NCBI GenBank assembly: GCA_963768855.1
Contig: CAVYJM010000011.1
Location: 352,001-416,000, forward strand
Source of the DNA: an uncultured Thermoplasmata archaeon
GTDB lineage: Archaea > Thermoplasmatota > Thermoplasmata > RBG-16-68-12
Direction of reading: 5' to 3'
DNA length: 64,000 nt
The stretch's first letter is position 1. Every line of letters starts with the position of its first letter. This document shows, in pieces, positions 7,201 through 25,726 of this stretch. The notes under the pieces are model-generated. The model saw nothing but the letters and a program-made list of their open reading frames with translations. It searched no databases and was not told the origin of the DNA. The position numbers were made by a program, and so were the translations under genes.

Positions 7201-7980
7201 TTAGGCTGGCGCCCCGACGAGGTAGGCGATCAGGAACCCGGCCAGCGCCGACACGATGCCGATGATCAGCATCTGCGTGCCGCTGCGGTACGGCCGGCCG
7301 ACCGTGATCCGCCCCTTGTACCAGCCGATGACGAACAGCACGATCGCCGCGACGATCACGGACCCGATCATCCCCAGGATGACGTCGGAGGAGAACACGA
7401 GGAACGGGAGGAGCGGGATGATCGATCCGAAGATGGCCGCGAAGCCGACGAGGAGCGCGCTCTTCCGCGCCTGGTTGTCCTCGAGAGGGGCGAGGCCGAG
7501 CTCGTGGGCCATCATGAACTCGAGCCAGGCTTTGGGCTTGGAGATGATGTGCCCGACGGCGGCTTCGAGTTCCTTCCCTTCGAAGCCCCACCGCTGGAAG
7601 ACCTCGCGGACCTCCTGCCGCTCGACGTCCGGGAGCTCCTCCATCTCGCGCTGCTCGCGCGCCAGTTCGCCGAGATAGTGGTCCCGCCTCGCCAGGGTGG
7701 ACGTGTAGGCCACCGCGCCCATCGAGATCGACTCGCCGAACGTGGCCGCGAGGCCTCCCGCGAGCACCACCCGGAACACGGCGCTCGAGGGGCCGTACTG
7801 CTGCATGGCCCCCGCGGCGACTCCGAGGAGGACCGCGAGGACGTTCACGATGCCGTCTTGGCTCCCGAGGATGAAGTCGGAGAGCATCCCGGGGTGGGTG
7901 TGCCGCTCCGCCCCCTCCTCGAGCTCTTCCTTCCGCCAGAACGTGAGTCGCGTGACCACGGTCGCTTCCGGGGGGAGCAC
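7201..7980 (-). CDS. VIT1/CCC1 family Fe/Mn transporter (copy 1)
   Basis: DFILGSQDGIV, ESISMGAVAY, EREQ..ELP..ERQEV, FMMAHELG. Confidence 0.92.
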   Translation of the reverse strand: MLPPEATVVTRLTFWRKEELEEGAERHTHPGMLSDFILGSQDGIVNVLAVLLGVAAGAMQQYGPSSAVFRVVLAGGLAATFGESISMGAVAYTSTLARRDHYLGELAREQREMEELPDVERQEVREVFQRWGFEGKELEAAVGHIISKPKAWLEFMMAHELGLAPLEDNQARKSALLVGFAAIFGSIIPLLPFLVFSSDVILGMIGSVIVAAIVLFVIGWYKGRITVGRPYRSGTQMLIIGIVSALAGFLIAYLVGAPA

Positions 7981-8065
7981 CGCGATGGGCCCGATTTAGG
8001 GGTTGCGTCCTTACTATTGTCCGGATACGCATTTTCGGTTGGAGGAGCGAAAGCCGAAACCCTTA

Positions 8066-8875
8066 TCAGATGGGCCCTGCGCCGACGAGGTACGCGATCA
8101 GGAACCCAGCCACCGCGGACGCGATCCCGATCGCGACCATCTCGAGGCCGCTGCGGGCCGGCCGCCCGACCGTGCTCGTGGCCTTGTACCAGCCGATCAG
8201 GAACAGGGCGACCGCGGCGACCAGGACGGACGCGAGCATCCCGGTCAGGATGTCCCCCGGGAAGACCAGAAAGGGGAGGAGGGGGATGACTGATCCGAAG
8301 ATCGCCGCGAAGCCCACCAGGAACGCGCTGTTCCGCGCCTGGCGCTTTTCCACGGGCGTCAGGCCGAGCTCGTGGGCCATCATGAACTCGAGCCACGCCT
8401 TCGGGTTCGAGACGATGTCGTCCGTGACCTGCTCCAGCTTCGCGCCCTGGAACCCCCATTTCTCGAAGACCTCCCGCACCTCCTGCCGCTCGAGGTCGGG
8501 GAGCTCCCGCATCTCGCGCTCCTCCCGCTCCCGCTCCTTCAGGTAGTGGTCCCGCCGGGCAAGGGTCGTCGTGTAGGCGACGGCCCCCATGGAGATGGAC
8601 TCCGCGAACGTCGCGGCGAGCGCGCCCGCGACGACGATCCGGAACGGGTCGGCCAGTTGCTGCGCCAGGGCCTGCTGGTGCGCCGCGATCGCGATCCCGA
8701 GGATCACGCCGAGGACGTTCACGAGCCCGTCCTGGCTGCCGAGGATGAAATCGGACAGGAGTCCCGGCCGGGCGTGCTCCTCGCCCGCGGCCTCCTCTTC
8801 CTGCTTCCGCCAGAACGCCAACCGTGTCGACACCGGCCCACCGTGGGTCCCGAACCGGTCGGGTCTTTTAGCCAT
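8066..8875 (-). CDS. VIT1/CCC1 family Fe/Mn transporter (copy 2)
   Basis: C-terminal 269 aa of the long 8066..10078 ORF; DFILGSQDGLV, ESISMGAVAY, FMMAHELG. Confidence 0.9.
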   Translation of the reverse strand: MAKRPDRFGTHGGPVSTRLAFWRKQEEEAAGEEHARPGLLSDFILGSQDGLVNVLGVILGIAIAAHQQALAQQLADPFRIVVAGALAATFAESISMGAVAYTTTLARRDHYLKEREREEREMRELPDLERQEVREVFEKWGFQGAKLEQVTDDIVSNPKAWLEFMMAHELGLTPVEKRQARNSAFLVGFAAIFGSVIPLLPFLVFPGDILTGMLASVLVAAVALFLIGWYKATSTVGRPARSGLEMVAIGIASAVAGFLIAYLVGAGPI

Positions 8876-11469: not shown

Positions 11470-12306
11470 ATGAAGATCCTGATCGCGGACGACGATGAGC
11501 TGCTGCGGGAGCTCTTGGCGGAGTTCCTTCGGGACCACGGCCACTCGGTCGATCTCGCGAACGATGGGACCGAGGCCCTCGAACGTCTGCGCACAGGCTC
11601 GTACGAGGTTGCGTTCCTCGACTACGCCATGCCTGGCATGTCCGGAATGGAGGTCATCCGCGCCGCGCGCGAGGCGGTTCCGCAAACGGCCTGCGTGATG
11701 ATGACCGGGCACACGAGCGTCACGACGGCCGTGGAGGCGATCAAGTCCGGAGCGAGTGACTTCGTCGCAAAGCCGCTCGAACCAGAGGCGATCGACCGCG
11801 TCCTGGAGAGCGTGAAGACGGCCACCCGAGCGCGGGAGGCGGCCGGGGTACGCTCCCGCGCGAGCGGTCTCTCCCGCCAGCCCGAGATTCGCGCCGCCTT
11901 CCTCACCGACCACGCAGGCCTCCTCATCGCCTCCCGGGTGGACCCGGAAGAGGGCATGGTGGACGGGGATCTCTTCAGCGCGACGCTCGACGTCATCCAG
12001 AACTTCATGCGCACTTCCTTCCCGGTGCTCCGCGGCCGCTCCCTGTCGGCCATCCACCAGGGCGACTGCACCCTCGTGCTCGAGCCCGGCGACCAGGCGC
12101 TCCTCACGGTCCTCGTCCAGGGGCGGGAGACCGAGTCCCTACGGCGTCGGATGCGGAAGGTCCTGCGGGACTTCGAGGTCCAGAACGAAGGGCGACTCCA
12201 AGCCGGTCTCGTCCACACGGACGCGGTCCGTGGAGCGGAGGAGCTGATGTCGAGGATCATGGTCAGCGGCGATTCGCACTCCGCCCGGCCACCGCGCGCC
12301 CCCTAG
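11470..12306 (+). CDS. Response regulator receiver (REC) fused to a longin-like output domain
   Basis: ILIADDD, FLDYAMPGMSG, MMTG, FVAKP intact; C-terminal DLFSATLDVIQNFMRTSFP domain shared with 21208 and 22388 genes. Confidence 0.88.
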   Translation: MKILIADDDELLRELLAEFLRDHGHSVDLANDGTEALERLRTGSYEVAFLDYAMPGMSGMEVIRAAREAVPQTACVMMTGHTSVTTAVEAIKSGASDFVAKPLEPEAIDRVLESVKTATRAREAAGVRSRASGLSRQPEIRAAFLTDHAGLLIASRVDPEEGMVDGDLFSATLDVIQNFMRTSFPVLRGRSLSAIHQGDCTLVLEPGDQALLTVLVQGRETESLRRRMRKVLRDFEVQNEGRLQAGLVHTDAVRGAEELMSRIMVSGDSHSARPPRAP

Positions 12307-17202: not shown

Positions 17203-17390
17203 GGCCGTCCTCGCCGAGAGGATGACCTGGGAGATAAGGAGCTTTCGCCCTCCATCGCCCGGCCGAGCGCCGCGGGTGAAAACGGAACATACTCCGGTCC
17301 GCCTACCGAATGTATTTATCCGCAGCAACCGTTCGCCGTCCCACACCGCTCGGGCCGGGGGGTGCGGGTTCCACGTCGGAGTACATACCA

Positions 17391-18098
17391 CTGGACAGTC
17401 GAGTGCCCACGCGCGTCGCCGGCCTCGATGACCGGCTCGGTGGCGGCATCCCCCGGGGTCACATCGTCCTCGTCGCCGGCCCGCCCGGATCGCTCAAGTC
17501 CACGTTCGCGTACCGGATCCTGTACCAGGAAGCGAAGGAGCACGGCGCCTCCTGCCTCTATCTCTCGATGGAGCAGAGCCGCGCCTCCCTCATCGCGCAG
17601 ATGACCTCCCTGGGGATGGACCCGGAGCAGGTCAAGGGCGTCCACATCATCGACGTCCGCGCCCTCCGCAAGGAGATCGAGGACCTCCGGGAACAGCCGC
17701 GGTGGCTCCTCGGCCTGCGCCGCCAGCTCGGCCGCTACAAGGAGGAGATGGGCTGCGACCTCCTCGCGATCGACAGCCTCGACGCGCTCTACGCGCTCAC
17801 GCCGATGGAGAACCCGCGCAACGAAGTGTTCCATTTCTTCGAGGAGTTGCGGGAGCTCCAGGCAACGACCTTCCTCGTCTCGGAGATGGGCCGCGACGAC
17901 GTGCGCCTCTCGCACTACGGCGTCGAGGAGTTCCTCGCGGACACGATCGTCCACCTGCGCCTCCGGGAGATCGACATCGGGATGAGCACCTCCGTCCGCC
18001 GATACATCGGCGTGGTGAAGATGCGCGGCGTGGACCACGACCTCGACTACTATCCGTTGCTCATTGAGGACGGCGGCTTCGAGATCGTGTCGGAGTGA
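17391..18098 (+). CDS. Single-domain KaiC/RAD55-like ATPase
   Basis: TRVAGLDDRLGGGIP, Walker A GPPGSLKS, Walker B LAIDSL, VVKMRG; start codon uncertain (17391 CTG or 17403 GTG). Confidence 0.88.
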   Translation: MDSRVPTRVAGLDDRLGGGIPRGHIVLVAGPPGSLKSTFAYRILYQEAKEHGASCLYLSMEQSRASLIAQMTSLGMDPEQVKGVHIIDVRALRKEIEDLREQPRWLLGLRRQLGRYKEEMGCDLLAIDSLDALYALTPMENPRNEVFHFFEELRELQATTFLVSEMGRDDVRLSHYGVEEFLADTIVHLRLREIDIGMSTSVRRYIGVVKMRGVDHDLDYYPLLIEDGGFEIVSE

Positions 18099-18119: not shown

Positions 18120-19871
18120 GTGAACCTCCTCGGTGCGGCTCTCTCCCTGGCGGCCTTGGGCGTCAGCGCGTTCCTCGCGGTGTACGTCCTCGGGATGCAC
18201 CCGCGCTCGTTGCCGAGCCGCGCCTTCTTCGCCCTCATGATGACGTTCGTGTGGTGGGACGCCTGCGAGGCGGTCGAGCGGGCGCTGCCCGCCGGGACCA
18301 CGCCGTCCGCGGCCTTCCCGTGGACTCAGGGCGTGTGGCTCGGGATCAGCGCGGTGCCCGCCGCCCTGATGCAGCTCGCCCTCGTGTACCCGGAGCGGCG
18401 ACCCTGGTTCCGGCGCGAGTACCTCCCGCTGATCTACGCCCCCGTGGTCGGGTGGGCCTACCTGATCTTCGGGACCCGCCATCTGATCGCCGGTGTGGCG
18501 GAGGGGCCCCTCGGTCCCGGCGCAGTCGTCGGGGATAGCTACCTCCCCCTCGCTTCGGTCTACGCGGCCTGGTTCTACCTCAGCGTCGTCCTGTTCGCCG
18601 TGAACTGGTGGCGTCTGCGCGGGAGCAACCTCCGCCAGATGCAGGGCGTCGTCGTCCTCGGCCTGCTGGTCGGGTCCGTCCCCGCCGGCGTGACGGAGAT
18701 CTTCTGGCCCCTGATCGACGGATTCTCGGTCCGCCTGGGGCTGGGGTCCCTCTATACGCTCGTCTGGTCCATCTTCCTCGCGTTCGCCATCGCGCGCTAC
18801 CGCTACCTGGTCATCGAGCCCGTGACGGAGTCGCTCGGCGCGACGCGTGCCCGCCATCCGCTCTCCCGCGGGTTCAACTACCTCGTTCTGGAGCCGGGCC
18901 GGGCCGCGGGGATGGGGGCGTTCCGCGAGATCGTCTCGACGACGCCGGGGTTGTGCGTGACGGGCCTCGCGCCGGCTCGGATCGCCGAGCGGTTCGGGCT
19001 CGAGCGGACGCCCGTCCTGTGGATCACGACCGTCTCGGGCGAGGGGCGCACGGTCCGCCCGCAGGGGCTCGACTTCGAGCTCGTGCACACGGTCCTGAAG
19101 TTCCAGCGGGAGAACCCGGGGACCGCGATCCTCCTCGACGATCTGGACTACCTGGCCGCGGTGGACGGGTTCGAGGCGGTCGCCCGCTTCCTGAAGCGTG
19201 TCGCGAATCAGGCGAGTTCCTCGAGCGGCACGCTCATCGTGACGGCGGGCCACGGTACGTTCACGGCGGAGCAGGTCGCGGTGCTCGGCGGTTGCGTCGA
19301 CCATGTCCTCGACATCCCCGAGACCTCGAACGGGACGCTCGCCCCTTCGCGGGGTCACGCCCTCCTCTTCGTGCCGCAACAGGACGTCGGGGGCGTCCTC
19401 GCCCTCGTCGGCGCCAGCCGCGGCCTGATCGTGACCACGGAGCACCCCGCGAAGGCCCGCCGCCGGCTCGGAGAAGGCTTCGACATCCTCTGGATCACGG
19501 AGCATCCGGAGGCAGGGATCCTCTGCGCGCGACCGACGGCGCTCGACACGGAAGCCCGCCGCGCCATCAGCAATCACCTTTCCGCCCATCCGGGATCGGC
19601 CGTCGTCCTAGCGGGGCTCGAGCAGCTGTCCCTCTTCGCGGACTTCCCCGCCCTCCTGTCCTTCGTGAAGGACACGGTCGACGCGGCGTCCCTCCGGGGA
19701 AGCCAGGTCATCGCCGCGGTCAGTCCGAACGGGCTCCCCGCCCGGGAGGTCGCGATGCTCGCCCGCCGCTTGGATGTTCCCGCGGGCTCTTTTGTCAGGG
19801 GTTCTCCGGCTGGAGGGCTGTCCACAGCCGTTCCTGGAAGTCGAACTCCGATTCGAGGACCCGTTTCATGA
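18120..19871 (+). CDS. 7TM sensor (HisKA_7TM-like) fused to two DUF835 (inactive KaiC-like) domains
   Basis: Seven hydrophobic helices ending AIARYRYLVIEP; then PGLCVT..P, PVLWIT, ILLDDLDYL and a second copy ILWITE, VVLAGLEQL. Confidence 0.85.
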   Translation: MNLLGAALSLAALGVSAFLAVYVLGMHPRSLPSRAFFALMMTFVWWDACEAVERALPAGTTPSAAFPWTQGVWLGISAVPAALMQLALVYPERRPWFRREYLPLIYAPVVGWAYLIFGTRHLIAGVAEGPLGPGAVVGDSYLPLASVYAAWFYLSVVLFAVNWWRLRGSNLRQMQGVVVLGLLVGSVPAGVTEIFWPLIDGFSVRLGLGSLYTLVWSIFLAFAIARYRYLVIEPVTESLGATRARHPLSRGFNYLVLEPGRAAGMGAFREIVSTTPGLCVTGLAPARIAERFGLERTPVLWITTVSGEGRTVRPQGLDFELVHTVLKFQRENPGTAILLDDLDYLAAVDGFEAVARFLKRVANQASSSSGTLIVTAGHGTFTAEQVAVLGGCVDHVLDIPETSNGTLAPSRGHALLFVPQQDVGGVLALVGASRGLIVTTEHPAKARRRLGEGFDILWITEHPEAGILCARPTALDTEARRAISNHLSAHPGSAVVLAGLEQLSLFADFPALLSFVKDTVDAASLRGSQVIAAVSPNGLPAREVAMLARRLDVPAGSFVRGSPAGGLSTAVPGSRTPIRGPVS

Positions 19872-20022
19872 AGAGGACGATCTGACCCTGCGGGTCGAGG
19901 CCGTTCCGGGCGCAGTACTCGCGGAAGCCGTGGAGGACCTCCCCCTCGACGCGGATGTTGTACTGCACCTTGGCTTTCCTCGGCGGGGGCGATCCTCGGG
20001 GCGCCACGGCCCTCCGAATCAC
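19795..20022 (-). CDS. Small ribbon-helix-helix (CopG/Arc-like) DNA-binding protein
   Basis: VQYNIRV (ribbon), EGEVLHGFREYCARNG (helix), DPQGQIVLFMKRVL (helix); GTG start; overlaps the 3' end of the DUF835 gene. Confidence 0.7.
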   Translation of the reverse strand: MIRRAVAPRGSPPPRKAKVQYNIRVEGEVLHGFREYCARNGLDPQGQIVLFMKRVLESEFDFQERLWTALQPENP

Positions 20023-20030
20023 ACCGCCTC

Positions 20031-20099
20031 TATATCTACATTCTGTAGCATTTGCTATCTTTTTGTTCAAATCGTAGCCATTAAGTAAGTGATAATCAC
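20031..20099. promoter_or_regulatory. AT-rich divergent promoter region with short palindromes
   Basis: CTACA-ttc-TGTAG (20036-48), TAGCA-tt-TGCTA (20046-57), TTAAGTAA box (20081-88) followed directly by GTGAT-a-ATCAC (20089-99). Confidence 0.6.
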
Positions 20100-20134
20100 A
20101 TCTGGGAACGAGTGGGAGAGGAGGAGACCATCGG

Positions 20135-21196
20135 ATGACCGAGGCGACCCCCGCCCGGAACCGGCCGGCGACCCCCGAGGAACCAGGACTGGAACCCCCT
20201 GATTCGACGGTATCCGGCTCCACCGACGCCGACTTGCAGGCGGACCTGCTTGAGTCGCTCGTCGAGTCGGCGGACTACGTGGACGTCCGGAAACCACTCC
20301 CGGCCCGGAGTGGAGGGGGCCTGCTACTGGCCACCCCCGAGGCGATTCGGGACGCCTTCGTCACCGCATGGGAGGGCCTCTCCCATTCTCTCCATCTGGA
20401 GATCAGCGCGGCGCGCGCGCTCGACGGCGTGAGGGACCTCGTGCTCTACGACATCCCGGATGGGACCCGCAGCACGCTCTCCGTGCCCGCGGCGACGGAC
20501 GTCGAGACGGACGCCGGGCTGTATTGCCTCGCGCTCGTGCACACGCTCGCGTCGCTCGGAGCGGCGAGGACCGTCCTGCTCACGCACACGGTCTACAATC
20601 GCGAGCGCGGGCCCGAGGACACGAAGCGCTTCCTCGAGATCATGGCCCACGGCGTCGAACCCTTCCGCGGGTACACCCGGCGGCACAAGATCCGCGTGCA
20701 CCTCCACGGGATTCACGAGGGCTACGAACTCGGCCCCCTCCTCTCGAAGGCCTTCCCCGTCCCTGCGGCCCCCAAGTTCGATGCCCATTTCCTCCTGGAG
20801 TACGAGGAGGAATGGTTCCTGACCCCGCAGGGTCGCGCCCTGCTGGAGATGCTCCCGGACATCGACGTCGTCGTGCGCCACACGAAGCTCCAGGTGAGCG
20901 GCGGCTGGATCCCGATGAAGATGCGCAAGTCCGCGTACGTGTACTCCCAGAACGGGAGCCTGAACTCGAACTGGTCCTACGACGAGTACGCCTCGATGGT
21001 CGCCGTGGCCTACCTGGCCAAGGTCCTGCACTCCGGCGAGGCCCTGAGCAAGAAGTACGTCTCGATCGACGAGATCAAGGAGCGCTACCAGCAGCGGGAG
21101 ATGCGGCTCCAGACACGGGTCGTGCGGCTCAGGGAGAAACCGCGGAAGCTCTTCGTCGTCGGCTCCGCGACCGGCCTCATCCAGGTCTACGCCTGA
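20135..21196 (+). CDS. Divergent cis-prenyltransferase-fold protein (Rv3378c/UppS-like)
   Basis: YDIPDGTR, TVLLTHTVYNRERG, RRHKIRVHLHG, PDIDVVVR line up in order and spacing with cis-PT motifs. Confidence 0.7.
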   Translation: MTEATPARNRPATPEEPGLEPPDSTVSGSTDADLQADLLESLVESADYVDVRKPLPARSGGGLLLATPEAIRDAFVTAWEGLSHSLHLEISAARALDGVRDLVLYDIPDGTRSTLSVPAATDVETDAGLYCLALVHTLASLGAARTVLLTHTVYNRERGPEDTKRFLEIMAHGVEPFRGYTRRHKIRVHLHGIHEGYELGPLLSKAFPVPAAPKFDAHFLLEYEEEWFLTPQGRALLEMLPDIDVVVRHTKLQVSGGWIPMKMRKSAYVYSQNGSLNSNWSYDEYASMVAVAYLAKVLHSGEALSKKYVSIDEIKERYQQREMRLQTRVVRLREKPRKLFVVGSATGLIQVYA

Positions 21197-21207: not shown

Positions 21208-22326
21208 TCACGAGGCGGCCAGCAGGGCAGTGAGCAGGTCGTCGACGCCCCGGGCGTCTTTCGCCATGCCCCGCCAGTTGCCCAGCGCCTCCGCGTTCTC
21301 CTCTTCGAATTTCTCGACGGCCTCGATGACCAGCCGACGGAGCTGGTCGTTCTCCTCCCCGTCGAGGACGAGGGTGAGGCAGGCATGCCGTCCGCGCTCC
21401 ATGAGGAGCGTGTAGTTGCCATGGCGGATGGACTTGAGCCACTTCCCTCGCAGGGTCGGGAACGACGTGCGCATGAAGTTCGAGATCACGTCGAGCGTCG
21501 CGCTGAACGAGTCCGCGTCGATCATGCGTTCTTCCGGCTGGATTCTTGACCCGATCAGCGTGCCGTCGCTGAAGGTGAGGAAGGCGCCCTTCACATCGTA
21601 GGTCGAAGCCTTCTTCCGCCGGAGGGCGTCGTTCAGCCTCCGGCTGGCGGACGGGCTCGTCGCAAAGAAGATCAGGAATCCGGGGACGGCGAGAAAGGTC
21701 GAGAACAACGGAGGCTGGCCCGGGGAGTCCTCGAGGCCGAGCACCGCGTTCGAGAACGTGCCCGCCAGGAGGGCGGCGACGAAGCCAACGAGGATCGCCT
21801 CGATCCGATGCGCGAGTTTGGGACTCTGGCCGTGGACTTCGAAGACCGTCCGCCCGATTTGGGCCAGAGCGACCAGCCAGCACGCGGCAACAAACAGGAG
21901 CCACGGAAGATACCAATCCAGGTTGTACTGGGGGACCCGCGGGACCGGGCCCGGCGGGAGGGGCGGGAATCCGGCGAACATGTGTGTCGGGAACGAGACG
22001 ATGAAGAACGCGGCGGGGACGAAGACCAGGAGCGACACACGGCGGAACCGGCCGTGGAACGCCATCCCATAGAGGAGCAGGAACACGCTCCCCACGGTGA
22101 GGCAGGTCAGGGAGACGCTGGCCTCGAGCGTCAGGTCCGCACCTGGGGGCATGTTGAAGAAGATCGCATCGCCCAGGGCGTACCCTCCCGTCAGCGTGCA
22201 GAGGAGGACGAAGAACAACTCGGTCCACGTCCGGTACCGCTCCTGATACGTGAGGTACCCCGCCAGGGAGAACCAGATCCCCGCACTGACCAGGGGGGCC
22301 CAGAACAGGAAGTCGTACGCGGACAT
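21208..22326 (-). CDS. 7TM sensor fused to C-terminal longin-like domain (copy B)
   Basis: Seven TM helices starting MSAYDFLFW; C-terminal DSFSATLDVISNFMRTSFP domain. Confidence 0.85.
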   Translation of the reverse strand: MSAYDFLFWAPLVSAGIWFSLAGYLTYQERYRTWTELFFVLLCTLTGGYALGDAIFFNMPPGADLTLEASVSLTCLTVGSVFLLLYGMAFHGRFRRVSLLVFVPAAFFIVSFPTHMFAGFPPLPPGPVPRVPQYNLDWYLPWLLFVAACWLVALAQIGRTVFEVHGQSPKLAHRIEAILVGFVAALLAGTFSNAVLGLEDSPGQPPLFSTFLAVPGFLIFFATSPSASRRLNDALRRKKASTYDVKGAFLTFSDGTLIGSRIQPEERMIDADSFSATLDVISNFMRTSFPTLRGKWLKSIRHGNYTLLMERGRHACLTLVLDGEENDQLRRLVIEAVEKFEEENAEALGNWRGMAKDARGVDDLLTALLAAS

Positions 22327-22387
22327 GCGGGTTCCTCGATTCTTCAGTCCCCGTTGTGTCTTAAGCATTTAGTGTTCGAGTTCGGCC

Positions 22388-23527
22388 TCATGTCTGCTCG
22401 AGGAGGGAGGTGAGCAGCCCGTCCGTCCCGATCGCCTCGGACGGCATGCCTCTCCAGTCCGCGAGGACGGGCTGGTTGTCCCGCTCGTACCCCAGGAGGA
22501 GATCGCGCATGTGCCGGCGCAACTGGTCGTTCTCCTCTCCTTGTAGGATCACGGTCAGGTAGGCGTACCGGCCGCGTTCCATGACGAGCGTGTAGTCCCC
22601 GTGTTTGATCGCGCTCAGCGAACCGCGCAGGGTCGGGAAGGAGGTGCGCATGAAGTTCTGGATCACGTCGAGCGTCGCGCTGAACAGGTCCTGGTCGATG
22701 ACCTTCTCCCCGGGTCGGACCTTCGCGCCGATCAGGGTGCCGTCCGTGAAGATCACGAAGGCCGCCTTGATGTTGTAGCGGCTTGCCTTCCACCGCCGCA
22801 CCGCAACGGAGAACCGCTCCGTGCTCAGAGGCGACAGGGTCACGACCGAGACGATTCCCGGGAGGACGAGCCCGGTGGAGAAGAGCGGGAGGAACTGGTA
22901 ATTCCCGAGCCCGCGCGTCACGTTCGTCAGCCCTCCGAGGGCCAGGGCGAGGAGGGTCGAGACGAGCAGGCCGAGCATCCGGCGGCGGAGCTTCGTCGTC
23001 TGGTCCGCCACCTCCCGATAGGTTCGCAGGAGGAAGTACGCGGCGAGGCCGGCGTAGGCCACCACGCCCACCACCCAAGTGATGAACACGGTCTTGTCCC
23101 AGGAGCCGAGCCAGGGCGGCCCGAACAGCGCGCCGGGCGACGAGTCGAGGGGCTGGATCATGCCCAGGTTCGGGACGAGACCCGCCCACACGAGCGCGAT
23201 GAGGCCGACCGCGGGCACGAACGCGAGCAGGTACCCGGTCCGCATCCTCGTGTAGAAGACGAGGGAGAAGAGGAAGATGAAGCAGACACTGAGGGTGAGG
23301 ACGCTGAAGCCAAGCAGGGCGGCGGTTCTGGCTTGCATCTGGTCCGGCGAAGTGAAGAAGAGGACATCGGCAAAGGCGTACGCCCCGACGAAAATGCAGC
23401 CGGCGAGGAAGAACACCTCGGTCCACGTACGATAGCGGTCGCGATAGACCTGGTAGAGGGCGAGGCCCCACCACACGCCGACCGTGGCGAGGGGCAACCA
23501 CTGCTGGCCGGGGATGGGGAGGGCCAT
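22388..23527 (-). CDS. 7TM sensor fused to C-terminal longin-like domain (copy C)
   Basis: Seven TM helices; shares YRTWTE.FF with copy B; C-terminal DLFSATLDVIQNFMRTSFP domain. Confidence 0.85.
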   Translation of the reverse strand: MALPIPGQQWLPLATVGVWWGLALYQVYRDRYRTWTEVFFLAGCIFVGAYAFADVLFFTSPDQMQARTAALLGFSVLTLSVCFIFLFSLVFYTRMRTGYLLAFVPAVGLIALVWAGLVPNLGMIQPLDSSPGALFGPPWLGSWDKTVFITWVVGVVAYAGLAAYFLLRTYREVADQTTKLRRRMLGLLVSTLLALALGGLTNVTRGLGNYQFLPLFSTGLVLPGIVSVVTLSPLSTERFSVAVRRWKASRYNIKAAFVIFTDGTLIGAKVRPGEKVIDQDLFSATLDVIQNFMRTSFPTLRGSLSAIKHGDYTLVMERGRYAYLTVILQGEENDQLRRHMRDLLLGYERDNQPVLADWRGMPSEAIGTDGLLTSLLEQT

Positions 23528-23628
23528 GGAAACCAAGGGGTAGTTTCCCAACCTTCGCAAGGTATGTTAAAGCCTTCGACGTGATTTTCCGTCGCAAGAA
23601 GAGCCCGGGGCGCGCAACGGCTAAGGCG

Positions 23629-24665
23629 GTGGGTCCGATGCCCCGTCCACGAAGGTCCGGATCGCGGGCGCGGGTCCCGCAGGCCTCAGCGCGGCCTGCG
23701 TCCTCGCCGAGGGGGGAGCTGAGGTGGAGGTCTTCGATCGAGGACCCGCCCTCGGGTCGAAAGAGGCCGATTTCTCCGCAGGTCTGCGGAACTACGCCGG
23801 CCGGGACGCCCTCGAGGAACTTGCGTCCTACGGCGTGCCGGTCCGTCCGTTCGCCACCGCGCAGAAAACGATCCGGCATTCGCCGCGGTTCGCGAACGTG
23901 CTCCATGGCCCCTCCTACTTCATCCTGGCCCGCGGCGCGGGGCCGACCACGGTCGAGCGCCAGCTCTTCGACCGGGCCGTGCGGGCGGGAGCTCGGGTGC
24001 GGTTCGGGACGGCGAAGGATCCTCAGGACGTGGACATCGTGGCCGCGGGACGGCCCACCGGTCCGCCGTCCCTCCTCGGCGTGGGGTTCACGTTCTCGCG
24101 GGAGGGGAGCCCGATGGACGACACGACGCTCTACGCCCTCCTCGATAACTCGATCGCGCCCGCCGGCTACTTCGCCCTCGCCCCGGGGCCTGAGGCTTGC
24201 ACGCTCTACGCCGTCTCCTGGACGGATCTGGATCTGGAGAGCATGCGGTCGCGCGTCGAGGCCTCGCTCCAGATTCCCTGGGTGAGGGAGCTCGTCGGAT
24301 CGAGCCGCCGGCTTCAGCGGATCGAGTGCGGCGCCTACTTCGCGCGGGACCCGATCGCCGATGCGGTGGCCCCGTCGGGCGCGCTCCGGGTCGGAGAGGC
24401 CGCCGGCTTCCTCGATGCGATCGGCGGCTATGGCGTCCGGTACGCGTTGATCACGGGAGCCCTCGCGGCGAAGTCGGTCCTCGACCGGTCCGACTATCCT
24501 GCCCTCCTGCGGCAGGCGTTCGGCACTGAGTTCGAGGAAGCCTTCGCGTTCAGGCAGCAGTTGAACCGCGCGACGAACGAGGACATGGACCGCCTCGTGG
24601 CGTCCATGGGGCCGGAGATGGATCTGGCCGCGTACCAACAGCACCGGTCCTCCCGACTCCTGTGA
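23629..24665 (+). CDS. Geranylgeranyl-reductase-like FAD oxidoreductase 1; no in-frame start upstream of the GxGxxG motif (probable 1-nt indel)
   Basis: KVRIAGAGPAGLSAA at 23652, VGEAAGFLDAIGGYGVRYAL; in-frame TAA at 23622 with no ATG/GTG/TTG before the Rossmann motif. Confidence 0.75.
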
Positions 24666-24706
24666 CCCGCGCAAGCTTATTCTGGGGATCCCACCATCGT
24701 GCCGCG

Positions 24707-25726
24707 ATGGCCGATTCGGTCCGCGTCGCAGGGGCCGGCCTTGGAGGTCTGACCGCGGCACTCGTGCTCGCGCGAGCGGGGCGGACGGTCGAGGTCTTCG
24801 ACCCGAAGACGGCGCTGCTCCCCAGCTCGGGCCCGCACACGGAAGGCATCCGGAACTACCGCAAGTTGGACGCTCTCGAGGAACTGCGGTCCGTGGGCTT
24901 CGATTTTTCGCCGTTCTCGACCGTCCAGCGGACGATTCGCGCCGCGCCGCACGCCCGAACCGAGCTCCTCGGCCCCGCGCACTACCTGTTCCAGCGGGGC
25001 CGTGAACCCGAATCCGTCGATCAGGTCCTCTTCCGTCGGGCCCAGGAGGCCGGGGTCCGGTTCCACTTCGGCGCCTCCCTCGGCGCCGATGATGCAGACA
25101 TCGTCGCGACCGGTCCTCCGAAGGACGAGACCCAGATCCTCGGCGCGGGCTACACGTTCTCGGCCACGGGTAGCTCCCTGACGCGCGACGTCGCATGCGC
25201 CCTCTTCGACAACGAGGTCGCACCAGCCGGATACCTGGCCATCACGCCCGGCATCGACTACCACTCGATCTACAGCGTCTCCTGGTCCGAGTTCGACTAC
25301 GCGCGGCTCCTCGCTCGCGTCCACAAGGCGTTCGAGGTCCCCTGGGTCAAGGCGATTCTCGGGACGAGCACCTGGGTCGGCAAGATCCACGGCCGCGCAC
25401 ATTTCGTCCGAGATCCGATCGCGGACGCGGAGCGGGGCGGGGTGCTGTATGTCGGCGAGGCCGGAGGCTTCCAGGACGCCGTTGCGGGCTTCGGCTTCCG
25501 GTACGCGGCGATGACGGGCGCGCTCGCCGCACGGTCCATCCTGGAGGGCCGGGACTATCGTGGACTCCTGCGCCAGGCCTTCGGCAACGAGTTCGTGGAG
25601 TCCTGGGTCTTCCGGGAGAAGCTGAACGCCGCGACGAACGAGGACTATGACCGGATGTTCGCGGCCCTTGGCCCCGAGATCACCCTCGAGGCGTACGTCG
25701 CCCAGCGTGGCTCCCGCGGGTTCTGA
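24707..25726 (+). CDS. Geranylgeranyl-reductase-like FAD oxidoreductase 2 (tandem paralog)
   Basis: VAGAGLGGLTAA, VGEAGGFQDAVAGFGFRYAAMTG; clearly similar to the upstream copy. Confidence 0.85.
   Translation: MADSVRVAGAGLGGLTAALVLARAGRTVEVFDPKTALLPSSGPHTEGIRNYRKLDALEELRSVGFDFSPFSTVQRTIRAAPHARTELLGPAHYLFQRGREPESVDQVLFRRAQEAGVRFHFGASLGADDADIVATGPPKDETQILGAGYTFSATGSSLTRDVACALFDNEVAPAGYLAITPGIDYHSIYSVSWSEFDYARLLARVHKAFEVPWVKAILGTSTWVGKIHGRAHFVRDPIADAERGGVLYVGEAGGFQDAVAGFGFRYAAMTGALAARSILEGRDYRGLLRQAFGNEFVESWVFREKLNAATNEDYDRMFAALGPEITLEAYVAQRGSRGF

Follow-up and report, generated by a model that had tools for sequence, protein, structure and literature searches.

A stretch of 64,000 nucleotides (nt) from an uncultured Thermoplasmata archaeon (contig CAVYJM010000011.1, positions 352,001 to 416,000), referred to below in its whole length as the window, carries a gene, here called cisPTL, whose product represents a previously undescribed protein family, captured by neither Pfam nor NCBIfam, inside the cis-prenyltransferase (UPPS-like) superfamily. 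Fold and donor-site motifs place the protein there, but it fails three features of the canonical enzymes grouped in PF01255, namely the profile score, the second half of the acceptor site and the C-terminal RxG motif. Its fold and general substrate class are already known, and a search of the literature at hand found no prior description of the family. Judged by its conserved residues, cisPTL is proposed to be catalytically competent, an active prenyl diphosphate enzyme of the cis fold; the reading favored here, held at slightly under an even chance, is that it catalyzes a condensation and that its diphosphate product enters a specialized isoprenoid lipid pathway. The gene and its putative translation signal are located as follows.

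20135..21196, plus strand: cisPTL open reading frame (ORF; protein P0001), 353 aa, ATG start, divergent protein of the cis-prenyltransferase fold
20120..20124, plus strand: GGAGG, resembling a ribosome-binding site, with the ATG 10 nt further on

At the G+C content of the window, 67%, long ORFs often arise by chance. The frame at 20135-21196 (+) is nonetheless a real gene, because its G+C content by codon position (0.68/0.44/0.91 at positions 1/2/3) is that of a coding sequence, it is preceded by the GGAGG site, it has 210 homologues (word-indexed search of 5.8 billion proteins), and it occurs in single copy in 36 of the 43 genomes of its own family; a 634-aa ORF antisense to it has the mirror pattern (0.90/0.53/0.55). 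Most of the 120 homologues listed are 65-88% identical over the full length, and most are 353 aa long. All are unnamed or "hypothetical", and the named sources are metagenome-assembled genomes of Thermoplasmata, in agreement with the archaeal origin given in the initial annotation, which a model had made from the sequence alone. The motifs quoted there are likewise all present in the translation: YDIPDGTRS at residues 105-113, YNRERGPE at 154-161, RRHKIRVHLHG at 182-192, PDIDVVVRH at 241-249, and EKPRKLFVVG...GLIQVY at 334-352. Parts of cisPTL are matched at 88-99% identity by short contigs from four metatranscriptome (RNA) libraries, which stem from two soil studies; one contig, of 165 nt, spans 20074-20238 with two differences. 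These are compatible with transcription of cisPTL without proving it, as carry-over of DNA is possible and the runs were chosen by cisPTL itself; no significance attaches to the parts left uncovered.

Searched as a single sequence against Pfam, NCBIfam and the PDB, cisPTL gave no real match (a chance match to SlpA had an E-value of 0.13), its C-terminal half alone gave only a chance match in the PDB, and PF01255 did not match P0001 at E <=10. An exhaustive phmmer search of 1.84 billion cluster representatives returned only 55 clusters, including relatives of 270-340 aa at 22-40% identity. A family alignment of 33 sequences, A2, was then used as a profile for a PDB search and as AlphaFold2 input. 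The profile matched E. coli UPPS (E 1.6e-5), other UPPS, cyclolavandulyl diphosphate synthase (CLDS, E 5e-4), MA1831 and MM_0014. PF01255, whose curated gathering threshold is 27 bits, gave a sub-threshold match in nine of the 33 members of A2 (best E 7.4e-07, profile positions 22-140 only), and the maximum in a protein-by-protein scan of ten relatives was 20.7 bits. Profile-profile alignment by hhalign of the family with the canonical cis-prenyltransferases of its own genome and with 30 canonical enzymes of the phylum gave E-values of 5e-5 to 7e-5 and probabilities of 62-69%. Fused forms of cisPTL of at least 619 aa were not found, an absence that carries little weight.

The AlphaFold2 model built from A2 has a mean predicted local distance difference test score (pLDDT) of 83.4 and a predicted TM-score (pTM) of 0.81; residues 65-353 are modeled with confidence, and residues 1-64 are poorly defined (pLDDT 38-56). 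The top 50 chains of a Foldseek search of the PDB are all cis-prenyltransferases, headed by MM_0014 and MA1831 (E 3e-7, TM by target 0.66-0.73). VIA-align run on the Foldseek list gave Z scores of 17-19 and root-mean-square deviations (rmsd) of 2.6-3.1 A over about 200 residues for UPPS, LPPS, Rv1086, MM_0014 and others. In a search of 48,161 representatives independent of Foldseek, only 12 chains reached a Z of at least 8, all of them from the cis-prenyltransferase superfamily, and the next chain had a Z of 6.3. In descending order these were DHDDS (18.8), LPPS (18.3), Rv1086 and cis-geranylfarnesyl diphosphate synthase (17.6 each), MM_0014 and Rv2361c (17.3 each), CLDS and nerylneryl diphosphate synthase (16.9 each), Rv3378c (3wqm_A, 16.2), H. 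pylori UPPS (15.3), Nus1 (9.8) and NgBR (9.3). The cis-prenyltransferase fold, as such, had been correctly recognized in the initial annotation: the best structural matches all lie inside the superfamily, and none outside it.

Its more specific proposal, kinship with Rv3378c, did not hold. Rv3378c, the tuberculosinol/tuberculosinyl-adenosine synthase of 3WQM, shares the superfamily fold, and it is a longer chain that aligns furthest into the C-terminal extension of cisPTL: canonical enzymes align only to about model residue 300 and DHDDS to 326, while Rv3378c reaches 339 (model 79-339 against chain 6-294, 244 residues). It ranks, however, only ninth of the 12 superfamily representatives, with an rmsd of 5.3 A as against 2.8 A, at Z 17-19, for the UPPS-type enzymes, LPPS and MM_0014, and it was absent from the top 50 of both Foldseek and VIA-align, surfacing only in the wide structure search. 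Neither is it among the 32 PDB sequences at E <=10 in the A2 profile search, although absence from that list does not exclude kinship. A closer likeness to Rv3378c than to other enzymes of the fold is not supported, as Rv3378c lies more than one Z unit below DHDDS, LPPS, Rv1086, cis-geranylfarnesyl diphosphate synthase, MM_0014 and Rv2361c. Rv3378c receives a bicyclic prenyl diphosphate from a partner, the class II diterpene cyclase Rv3377c of M. tuberculosis. The cisPTL genome, which is 93.6% complete, showed no class II cyclase domain of the squalene-hopene type (PF13243), and no terpene cyclase stands among the neighbors of cisPTL.

The distinctive regions of the protein are listed with their coordinates in the window; residue conservation was counted in a 60-sequence alignment of the family.

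20135..20326, plus strand: N-terminal extension, residues 1-64, low-confidence or disordered, confined to the clade of this order and missing in relatives of 280-320 aa
20447..20473, plus strand: motif I, Y105-D-I-P-D109-G110-T-R112-S113, predicted Mg2+-binding Asp and loop for the donor (S1) diphosphate, aligned with DGNRR
20582..20614, plus strand: motif III, T150-H-T152-V-Y-N155-R-E-R158-G-P160, equivalents of UPPS S71/N74/R77 by hhalign
20855..20887, plus strand: motif V, P241-D-I-D-V-V-V-R248-H-T-K251, predicted first acceptor-site Arg and an invariant Lys replacing the SGE.R.S loop
20948..20974, plus strand: Q272-N-G-S-L-N-S-N-W280 loop after strand F, family-specific, without counterpart in canonical enzymes
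21035..21193, plus strand: C-terminal extension, residues 301-353, helix 311-323 and three-stranded sheet 327-352 with R321, K338 and G347, pLDDT 81-97

Nine residues are invariant in all 60 sequences (D109, G110, R112, P241, K251, Q272, W280, R321 and G347); R248 (59/60) and K338 (58/60) are nearly so, as are Y105, Y223, Y270, Y308, E322 and K306, and N273 and G274 are each kept in 50. The correspondences with UPPS motifs put forward in the initial annotation were reproduced when the family was aligned by hhalign with the canonical enzymes of its own genome: D109-G-T-R112 pairs with D-G-N-R, T152-x-x-N155-x-x-R158 with S-x-x-N-x-x-R, KIRVHLHG with KIRITVFG, and L-P241-D-I-D-V-V-V-R248 with L-P-D-P-D-L-V-L-R (LPDPDLVLRT). 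Y223 pairs in addition with the Tyr of (A/N)YGG. In human DHDDS the Asp of the first motif, D34, binds Mg2+, while R37, R38 and R85 hold the donor diphosphate (PMC7573591). The donor half is thus kept: the Asp for Mg and diphosphate and the Asn/Arg pair, both stated in the initial annotation as well, and also the Arg of the loop. The motif III columns are somewhat looser, with Thr in 42 of the 60 sequences, Arg or Lys in 52, and at position 155 Asn in 42 and His in the other 18. To the Asn type (His-Thr-x-x-Asn, Tyr-x-Glu) belong the window protein, all others of its order and the f23 clade; the His type is that of the f44 and f12 genomes and of numerous representatives from metagenomes. Lavandulyl diphosphate synthase is characterized by a His here (LiLPPS His78), and the Asn-to-His swap in a regular enzyme raises irregular coupling (PMC9297866). 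With N155 the window protein is of the regular type at this position, not of the LPPS type.

The acceptor (S2) side has changed far more. In DHDDS three residues hold the acceptor phosphate, R205 among them, and roles are also assigned to R211, S213 and RxG (PMC7573591). Of the acceptor-site pattern Arg-x5-Arg-x-Ser only R248 is present in cisPTL; the loop that follows, HTKLQVSGGW, has no Arg in any aligned row and no Ser that is conserved. Tyr or Phe occupies strand F where the canonical Glu is placed, a placement inferred from spacing and strand register, and no C-terminal RxG is found, the protein ending in ...EKPRKLFVVGSATGLIQVYA (GLIQVYA). The loss of the second acceptor-site Arg and of the RxG tail, another point of the initial annotation, is supported by alignments and conservation, as is that of the Ser. 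In place of the canonical site stand the invariant Lys three residues past R248, the QNG...NW loop, and the extra C-terminal helix and sheet. K251, R321 and K338 could rebuild a diphosphate site, and the conserved basic residues (R112, R158/K, R248, K251, R321 and K338) would, by their number, be enough for two diphosphate sites.

The same losses can be read differently. In a non-elongating prenyl transferase or a terpene-synthase-like hydrolase of the Rv3378c or kolavelool-synthase kind, the prenyl group in S1 would be passed to water, an alcohol, a nucleoside or another acceptor in a polar S2; this was the thrust of the initial annotation, and it is considered unlikely, though it deserves to be weighed seriously. 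The new invariant residues are mostly polar hydrogen-bonders (Q272, N273, T250, Y270 and W280), which would suit a polar acceptor, and Rv3378c, itself no isopentenyl diphosphate (IPP) elongase (PMC8131916), is the solved structure that aligns furthest into the C-terminal extension. The authors of the MM_0014 study linked a missing RxG and second Arg to accepting non-diphosphate acceptors and proposed that loss of RxG admits alcohols and water (PMC8131916). Rv3378c is nevertheless neither the nearest structure nor a match of the profile, and the genome holds no PF13243 cyclase domain. Moreover, the T152/N155 pair is conserved, the equivalent of which in MM_0014, Thr63/Asn66, is assigned to proton elimination (PMC8131916), the step after carbon-carbon coupling, and the genes found beside cisPTL (HAD phosphatase, UbiA, SQS_PSY; see below) suit a product that still bears a (di)phosphate.

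Compared with the known systems of this fold, cisPTL shares with UPPS, DHDDS, Rv1086 and Rv2361c (PF01255) the fold (Z 17-19, with about 200 residues aligned at an rmsd of about 2.8 A) and the Asp-Gly-x-Arg, S/T-x-x-N-x-x-R and P-D-x-D-(L/V)-(V/I)-x-R motifs. It differs from them in its 10-14% identity and its score under the PF01255 threshold, in lacking the SGE.R.SNFLLWQ loop, the strand-F Glu and the C-terminal RxG, and in adding K251, the QNG...NW loop and the C-terminal helix and beta-sheet of about 50 residues (R321, K338, G347). MM_0014 and MA1831 of Methanosarcina (PDB 7CAQ-7CC3, 7VQ9-7VQD) are, like cisPTL, extra archaeal paralogues beside a carrier-lipid enzyme; they are its best Foldseek matches, lack RxG and keep the Thr-x-x-Asn pair (PMC8131916). 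They are, however, only 14-18% identical to cisPTL, have a different S2 loop and lack its N- and C-terminal additions; the deposited chain of MM_0014, listed as a cis-prenyltransferase, counts 224 residues, and the protein has TLGG at its end (PMC8131916). The head-to-middle synthases (lavandulyl, cyclolavandulyl and isosesquilavandulyl) have the same fold, CLDS also by profile match, and LPPS shares its His with the 18 family members mentioned above but not with the window protein; the cyclolavandulyl and isosesquilavandulyl diphosphate synthases keep RxG (PMC8131916), which cisPTL does not. Nor does cisPTL resemble NgBR and Nus1, from which it differs in keeping D109 and R112, in lacking RxG and in the low Z scores. 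Thus, cisPTL is neither specifically Rv3378c-like, nor LPPS-type at the diagnostic residue, nor NgBR-like.

The distribution of cisPTL is that of an accessory paralogue, patchy in the phylum and near-core in its own family. It was found in 15 of the 401 phylum genomes sampled, and in 51 of 79 genomes of the window's order: 36 of 43 in family f1, 12 of 14 in f56, both in f54, and none of 18 in three other families. In family f23 it occurs in 15 of 108 genomes. A canonical cis-prenyltransferase is present in all 31 phylum genomes sampled, which together with the patchy distribution marks cisPTL as accessory. DNA of the cisPTL stretch comes mainly from wetland and freshwater-sediment metagenomes. 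The genome to which the window belongs has two canonical PF01255 genes, one archaeal-type of 261 aa and one bacterial-type of 247 aa, so that cisPTL would be an extra activity; they are located as follows.

L002:1435-2178, plus strand (G000 C6:8109-8852): canonical cis-prenyltransferase
L003:1495-2280, minus strand: canonical cis-prenyltransferase

The bacterial-type copy carries IIMDGNGRWA and RERRFGG, and the other 30 phylum genomes sampled have one canonical gene each; it may belong to a contaminant contig or be a horizontal acquisition, the contamination estimate of the assembly being 7.7%. These canonical genes bear on a second rival explanation, according to which cisPTL is an ordinary processive cis-prenyl diphosphate synthase of odd sequence, elongating farnesyl or geranylgeranyl diphosphate with several IPP units into a second polyprenyl diphosphate pool, e.g., a shorter or differently saturated carrier. 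Asn155 is the form of regular head-to-tail enzymes, as opposed to the His of lavandulyl diphosphate synthase (PMC9297866), a gene for a DedA/UptA-like polyprenyl-phosphate transporter adjoins cisPTL in one distant relative, and a GGR-like reductase together with a phosphatase would meet the needs of a dolichol-like saturated carrier. This explanation is nevertheless rather improbable: the S2 residues and RxG of the solved elongating enzymes are not conserved (PMC7573591), the score stays under the PF01255 threshold, and a canonical enzyme is already at hand in 31 of 31 genomes, whereas cisPTL is patchy.

The condensing-enzyme reading draws further on the gene neighborhoods, which were compared by tblastn and ORF clustering in stretches of 8-17 kb around 36 family members and in several shorter metagenome contigs (loci numbered with the prefix L). 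In the window's order a block is kept consisting of TtuA, PurA, KaiC, a seven-transmembrane (7TM)-DUF835 protein, cisPTL, a convergent 7TM gene, a variable slot, DNA ligase and adenylosuccinate lyase (ADSL), the slot being occupied by at least one of three genes, for a HAD phosphatase, a GGR-like flavoprotein and an HpnA-like short-chain dehydrogenase/reductase (SDR). In the f23 clade, whose cisPTL is about 40% identical and whose genomes have about 36% G+C, a same-strand run headed by cisPTL continues with a GGR-like gene, HAD, a B12-binding radical SAM gene and an HpnA-like SDR, complete in L028 only (cisPTL at 7932-8870) and partial elsewhere; the gene orthologous to GGR-like flavoprotein B of the window adjoins cisPTL in the f23 operons. 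In f44 a HAD gene lies 2.1 kb downstream of cisPTL in all five loci. Single loci of distant relatives add the following.

L089 (2080-3832): cisPTL overlaps a gene for a DGGGPS-like UbiA prenyltransferase (NCBIfam E 1.5e-49)
L087 (2650-5317): cisPTL, followed by a 308-aa gene without assigned family and by an SQS_PSY gene
L018 (945-2337): a DedA/UptA-like gene, for a putative polyprenyl-phosphate transporter, precedes cisPTL
L021 and L017: a type I phosphodiesterase gene precedes cisPTL
L086: an HpnA-like SDR gene near cisPTL

What these neighborhoods have in common is the metabolism of isoprenoid diphosphates: their enzymes act on prenyl (di)phosphates by reduction, dephosphorylation, transfer or coupling. 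A separate candidate, the GGR-like flavoprotein as an obligatory partner of cisPTL, was rejected, as it occurs in 111 of the 401 genomes against 15 for cisPTL.

From the observed fold, residue conservation and neighborhoods, the substrates, the carbon-carbon chemistry and the fate of the product are inferred as follows. Since the S1 half is conserved, an allylic prenyl diphosphate is expected as donor; it would be bound with Mg2+, D109 taking the metal ion and the G110-x-R112 loop and R158 the diphosphate, and the latter would be ionized or displaced in the canonical fashion. The donors are likely linear all-trans diphosphates, because the genome contains two trans-prenyl diphosphate synthases and neither PF13243 nor SQS_PSY was found in it. 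The prenyl group would then condense onto a second isoprenoid diphosphate (IPP, dimethylallyl diphosphate or a longer one), not onto water or a nucleoside; carbon-carbon condensation is favored since the T152/N155 pair, which serves proton removal after such a bond is formed, is kept along with R248, and since the partners act on prenyl (di)phosphates. The acceptor would sit in a rebuilt S2 site, in which R248 is retained and K251, Q272, W280, R321, K338 and G347 replace the second Arg, Ser, Glu and RxG, some of these residues coming from the C-terminal helix and beta-sheet module. The diphosphate product would pass to lineage-specific enzymes (GGR-like reductase, HAD, B12-radical SAM, HpnA-like SDR, DGGGPS-like UbiA or SQS_PSY) and end in a specialized isoprenoid lipid, beside the normal glycosyl-carrier polyprenol made by the canonical cis-prenyltransferase.

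Several observations weigh against this reading. The missing RxG and second Arg are the very features tied by the MM_0014 authors to non-diphosphate acceptors (PMC8131916), and the alignment with canonical enzymes is unreliable past R248, so that the loss of the R200/S202/E213 equivalents rests on spacing and on the lack of a conserved Arg there. The partners are facultative: GGR-like proteins occur in many more genomes than cisPTL, no GGR-like match reached the E 1e-25 cut-off in most of the f23 and f44 genomes that carry cisPTL, and HAD_2 is a very common family. The block in the window's order, moreover, holds housekeeping genes (TtuA, PurA, DNA ligase and ADSL), and the adjacency may be historical, not functional.

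The chemistries known for the cis-prenyltransferase fold are few: IPP elongation, head-to-middle coupling, and hydrolysis or transfer of the Rv3378c type. With its donor half kept, its own invariant residues on the acceptor side and a new C-terminal module, cisPTL stands apart from them, and its characterization could reveal a new prenyl-coupling reaction, identify an isoprenoid lipid of wetland and sediment Thermoplasmatota, whose lipids serve as environmental biomarkers, and add a scaffold for terpenoid engineering. As neither the fold nor the general substrate class is new, the surprise is moderate rather than revolutionary.

The remaining genes around cisPTL in the window, and the corresponding sensor gene in an f23 locus, are as follows.

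17310..18098, plus strand: KaiC-like ATPase, partner of the DUF835 protein, kept in synteny
18120..19871, plus strand: 7TM (HisKA_7TM)-DUF835 sensor-like protein (Pfam), directly upstream of cisPTL, with a putative link to it suggested by the conserved neighborhood
19795..20001, minus strand: small conserved ORF of about 68 aa, ribbon-helix-helix-like N-terminus, divergent from cisPTL, G+C at third codon positions (GC3) 0.87
21208..22368, minus strand: 7TM protein P0175, convergent with cisPTL, C-terminal domain roadblock/longin-like by eye
22388..23560, minus strand: tandem paralogue of P0175, 7TM protein
23649..24665, plus strand: GGR-like flavoprotein A; the canonical-start ORF runs from 23724, and the FAD-binding VRIAGAGPAG lies in frame upstream behind ACG 23649
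24662..25726, plus strand: GGR-like flavoprotein B, distant member of the geranylgeranyl reductase superfamily (TIGR02032 E 9e-11)
L028:5838-7832, minus strand: 7TM-PAS-HisKA-HATPase sensor of the f23 locus

In the window locus the P0175-type 7TM protein and the GGR-like flavoprotein are each encoded by two genes in tandem. Where the order has retained the 7TM-DUF835 gene, in 12 loci, it stands upstream of cisPTL; it is absent in L038 and L039. A 7TM gene of the P0175 type, for which no Pfam or NCBIfam match was found, lies just downstream of cisPTL in 13 of the 16 loci from this order; 12 of these copies are convergent with cisPTL and that of L040 is on the same strand, and the gene is missing in L053. 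In f23 a 7TM-PAS histidine kinase gene was found upstream by tblastn in 13 of 14 loci, divergent in nearly all, and in the 14th, L032, by ORF clustering only. The homologous HisKA_7TM module thus adjoins cisPTL in two distant clades with different outputs, DUF835 and KaiC in one and PAS-HisKA-HATPase in the other. The N-terminal extension of the protein, too, has conserved short motifs, PEEPGLEPPDS and LxESLVESADY, found only in the clade of this order, and these may form a docking peptide.

According to a third rival explanation, cisPTL is not a free-standing enzyme but a regulatory or accessory subunit of the NgBR/Nus1 kind, or a lipid-binding module that acts together with the 7TM sensors next to it. 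The sensor genes flanking it in two distant clades and the docking-like, clade-specific extension would fit this, yet it is very improbable, because the catalytic Asp and the diphosphate-binding Arg are invariant, whereas NgBR-type subunits lack both and keep RxG (PMC7573591), and because Nus1 and NgBR are the poorest matches within the superfamily. A bolder reading is regarded as a long shot: the family would produce a novel isoprenoid, e.g., a chain that is irregular or that is specially saturated and methylated, which would form part of the membrane and at the same time act as ligand or read-out of the 7TM sensors flanking the gene in two distant Thermoplasmatota clades. If true, a cis-prenyltransferase fold whose acceptor site is novel would be the center of an archaeal module that both makes and senses a lipid.

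Some minor observations concern the flanking genes. At the position equivalent to the small ORF at 19795..20001, which has a weak match to BrnA_antitoxin (E 0.086) and by tblastn 54% identity to L001, a gene of 65-68 aa is called in relatives; the overlapping plus-strand ORF 19774-20088 has a non-coding GC3 of 0.62. In GGR-like flavoprotein A the FAD-binding N-terminus, KVRIAGAGPAGLSAACVLAEGG, follows a TAA stop in frame (window 23621-23730); there is no ATG, GTG or TTG before GTG 23724, and ACG 23649 stands at the expected start site, which could reflect a mutated start codon, a non-canonical start or an assembly error. It is also worth mentioning that a third, partial relative of the two tandem 7TM paralogues (39% identity) lies at about 11600-12190 (+), 8.5 kb upstream.

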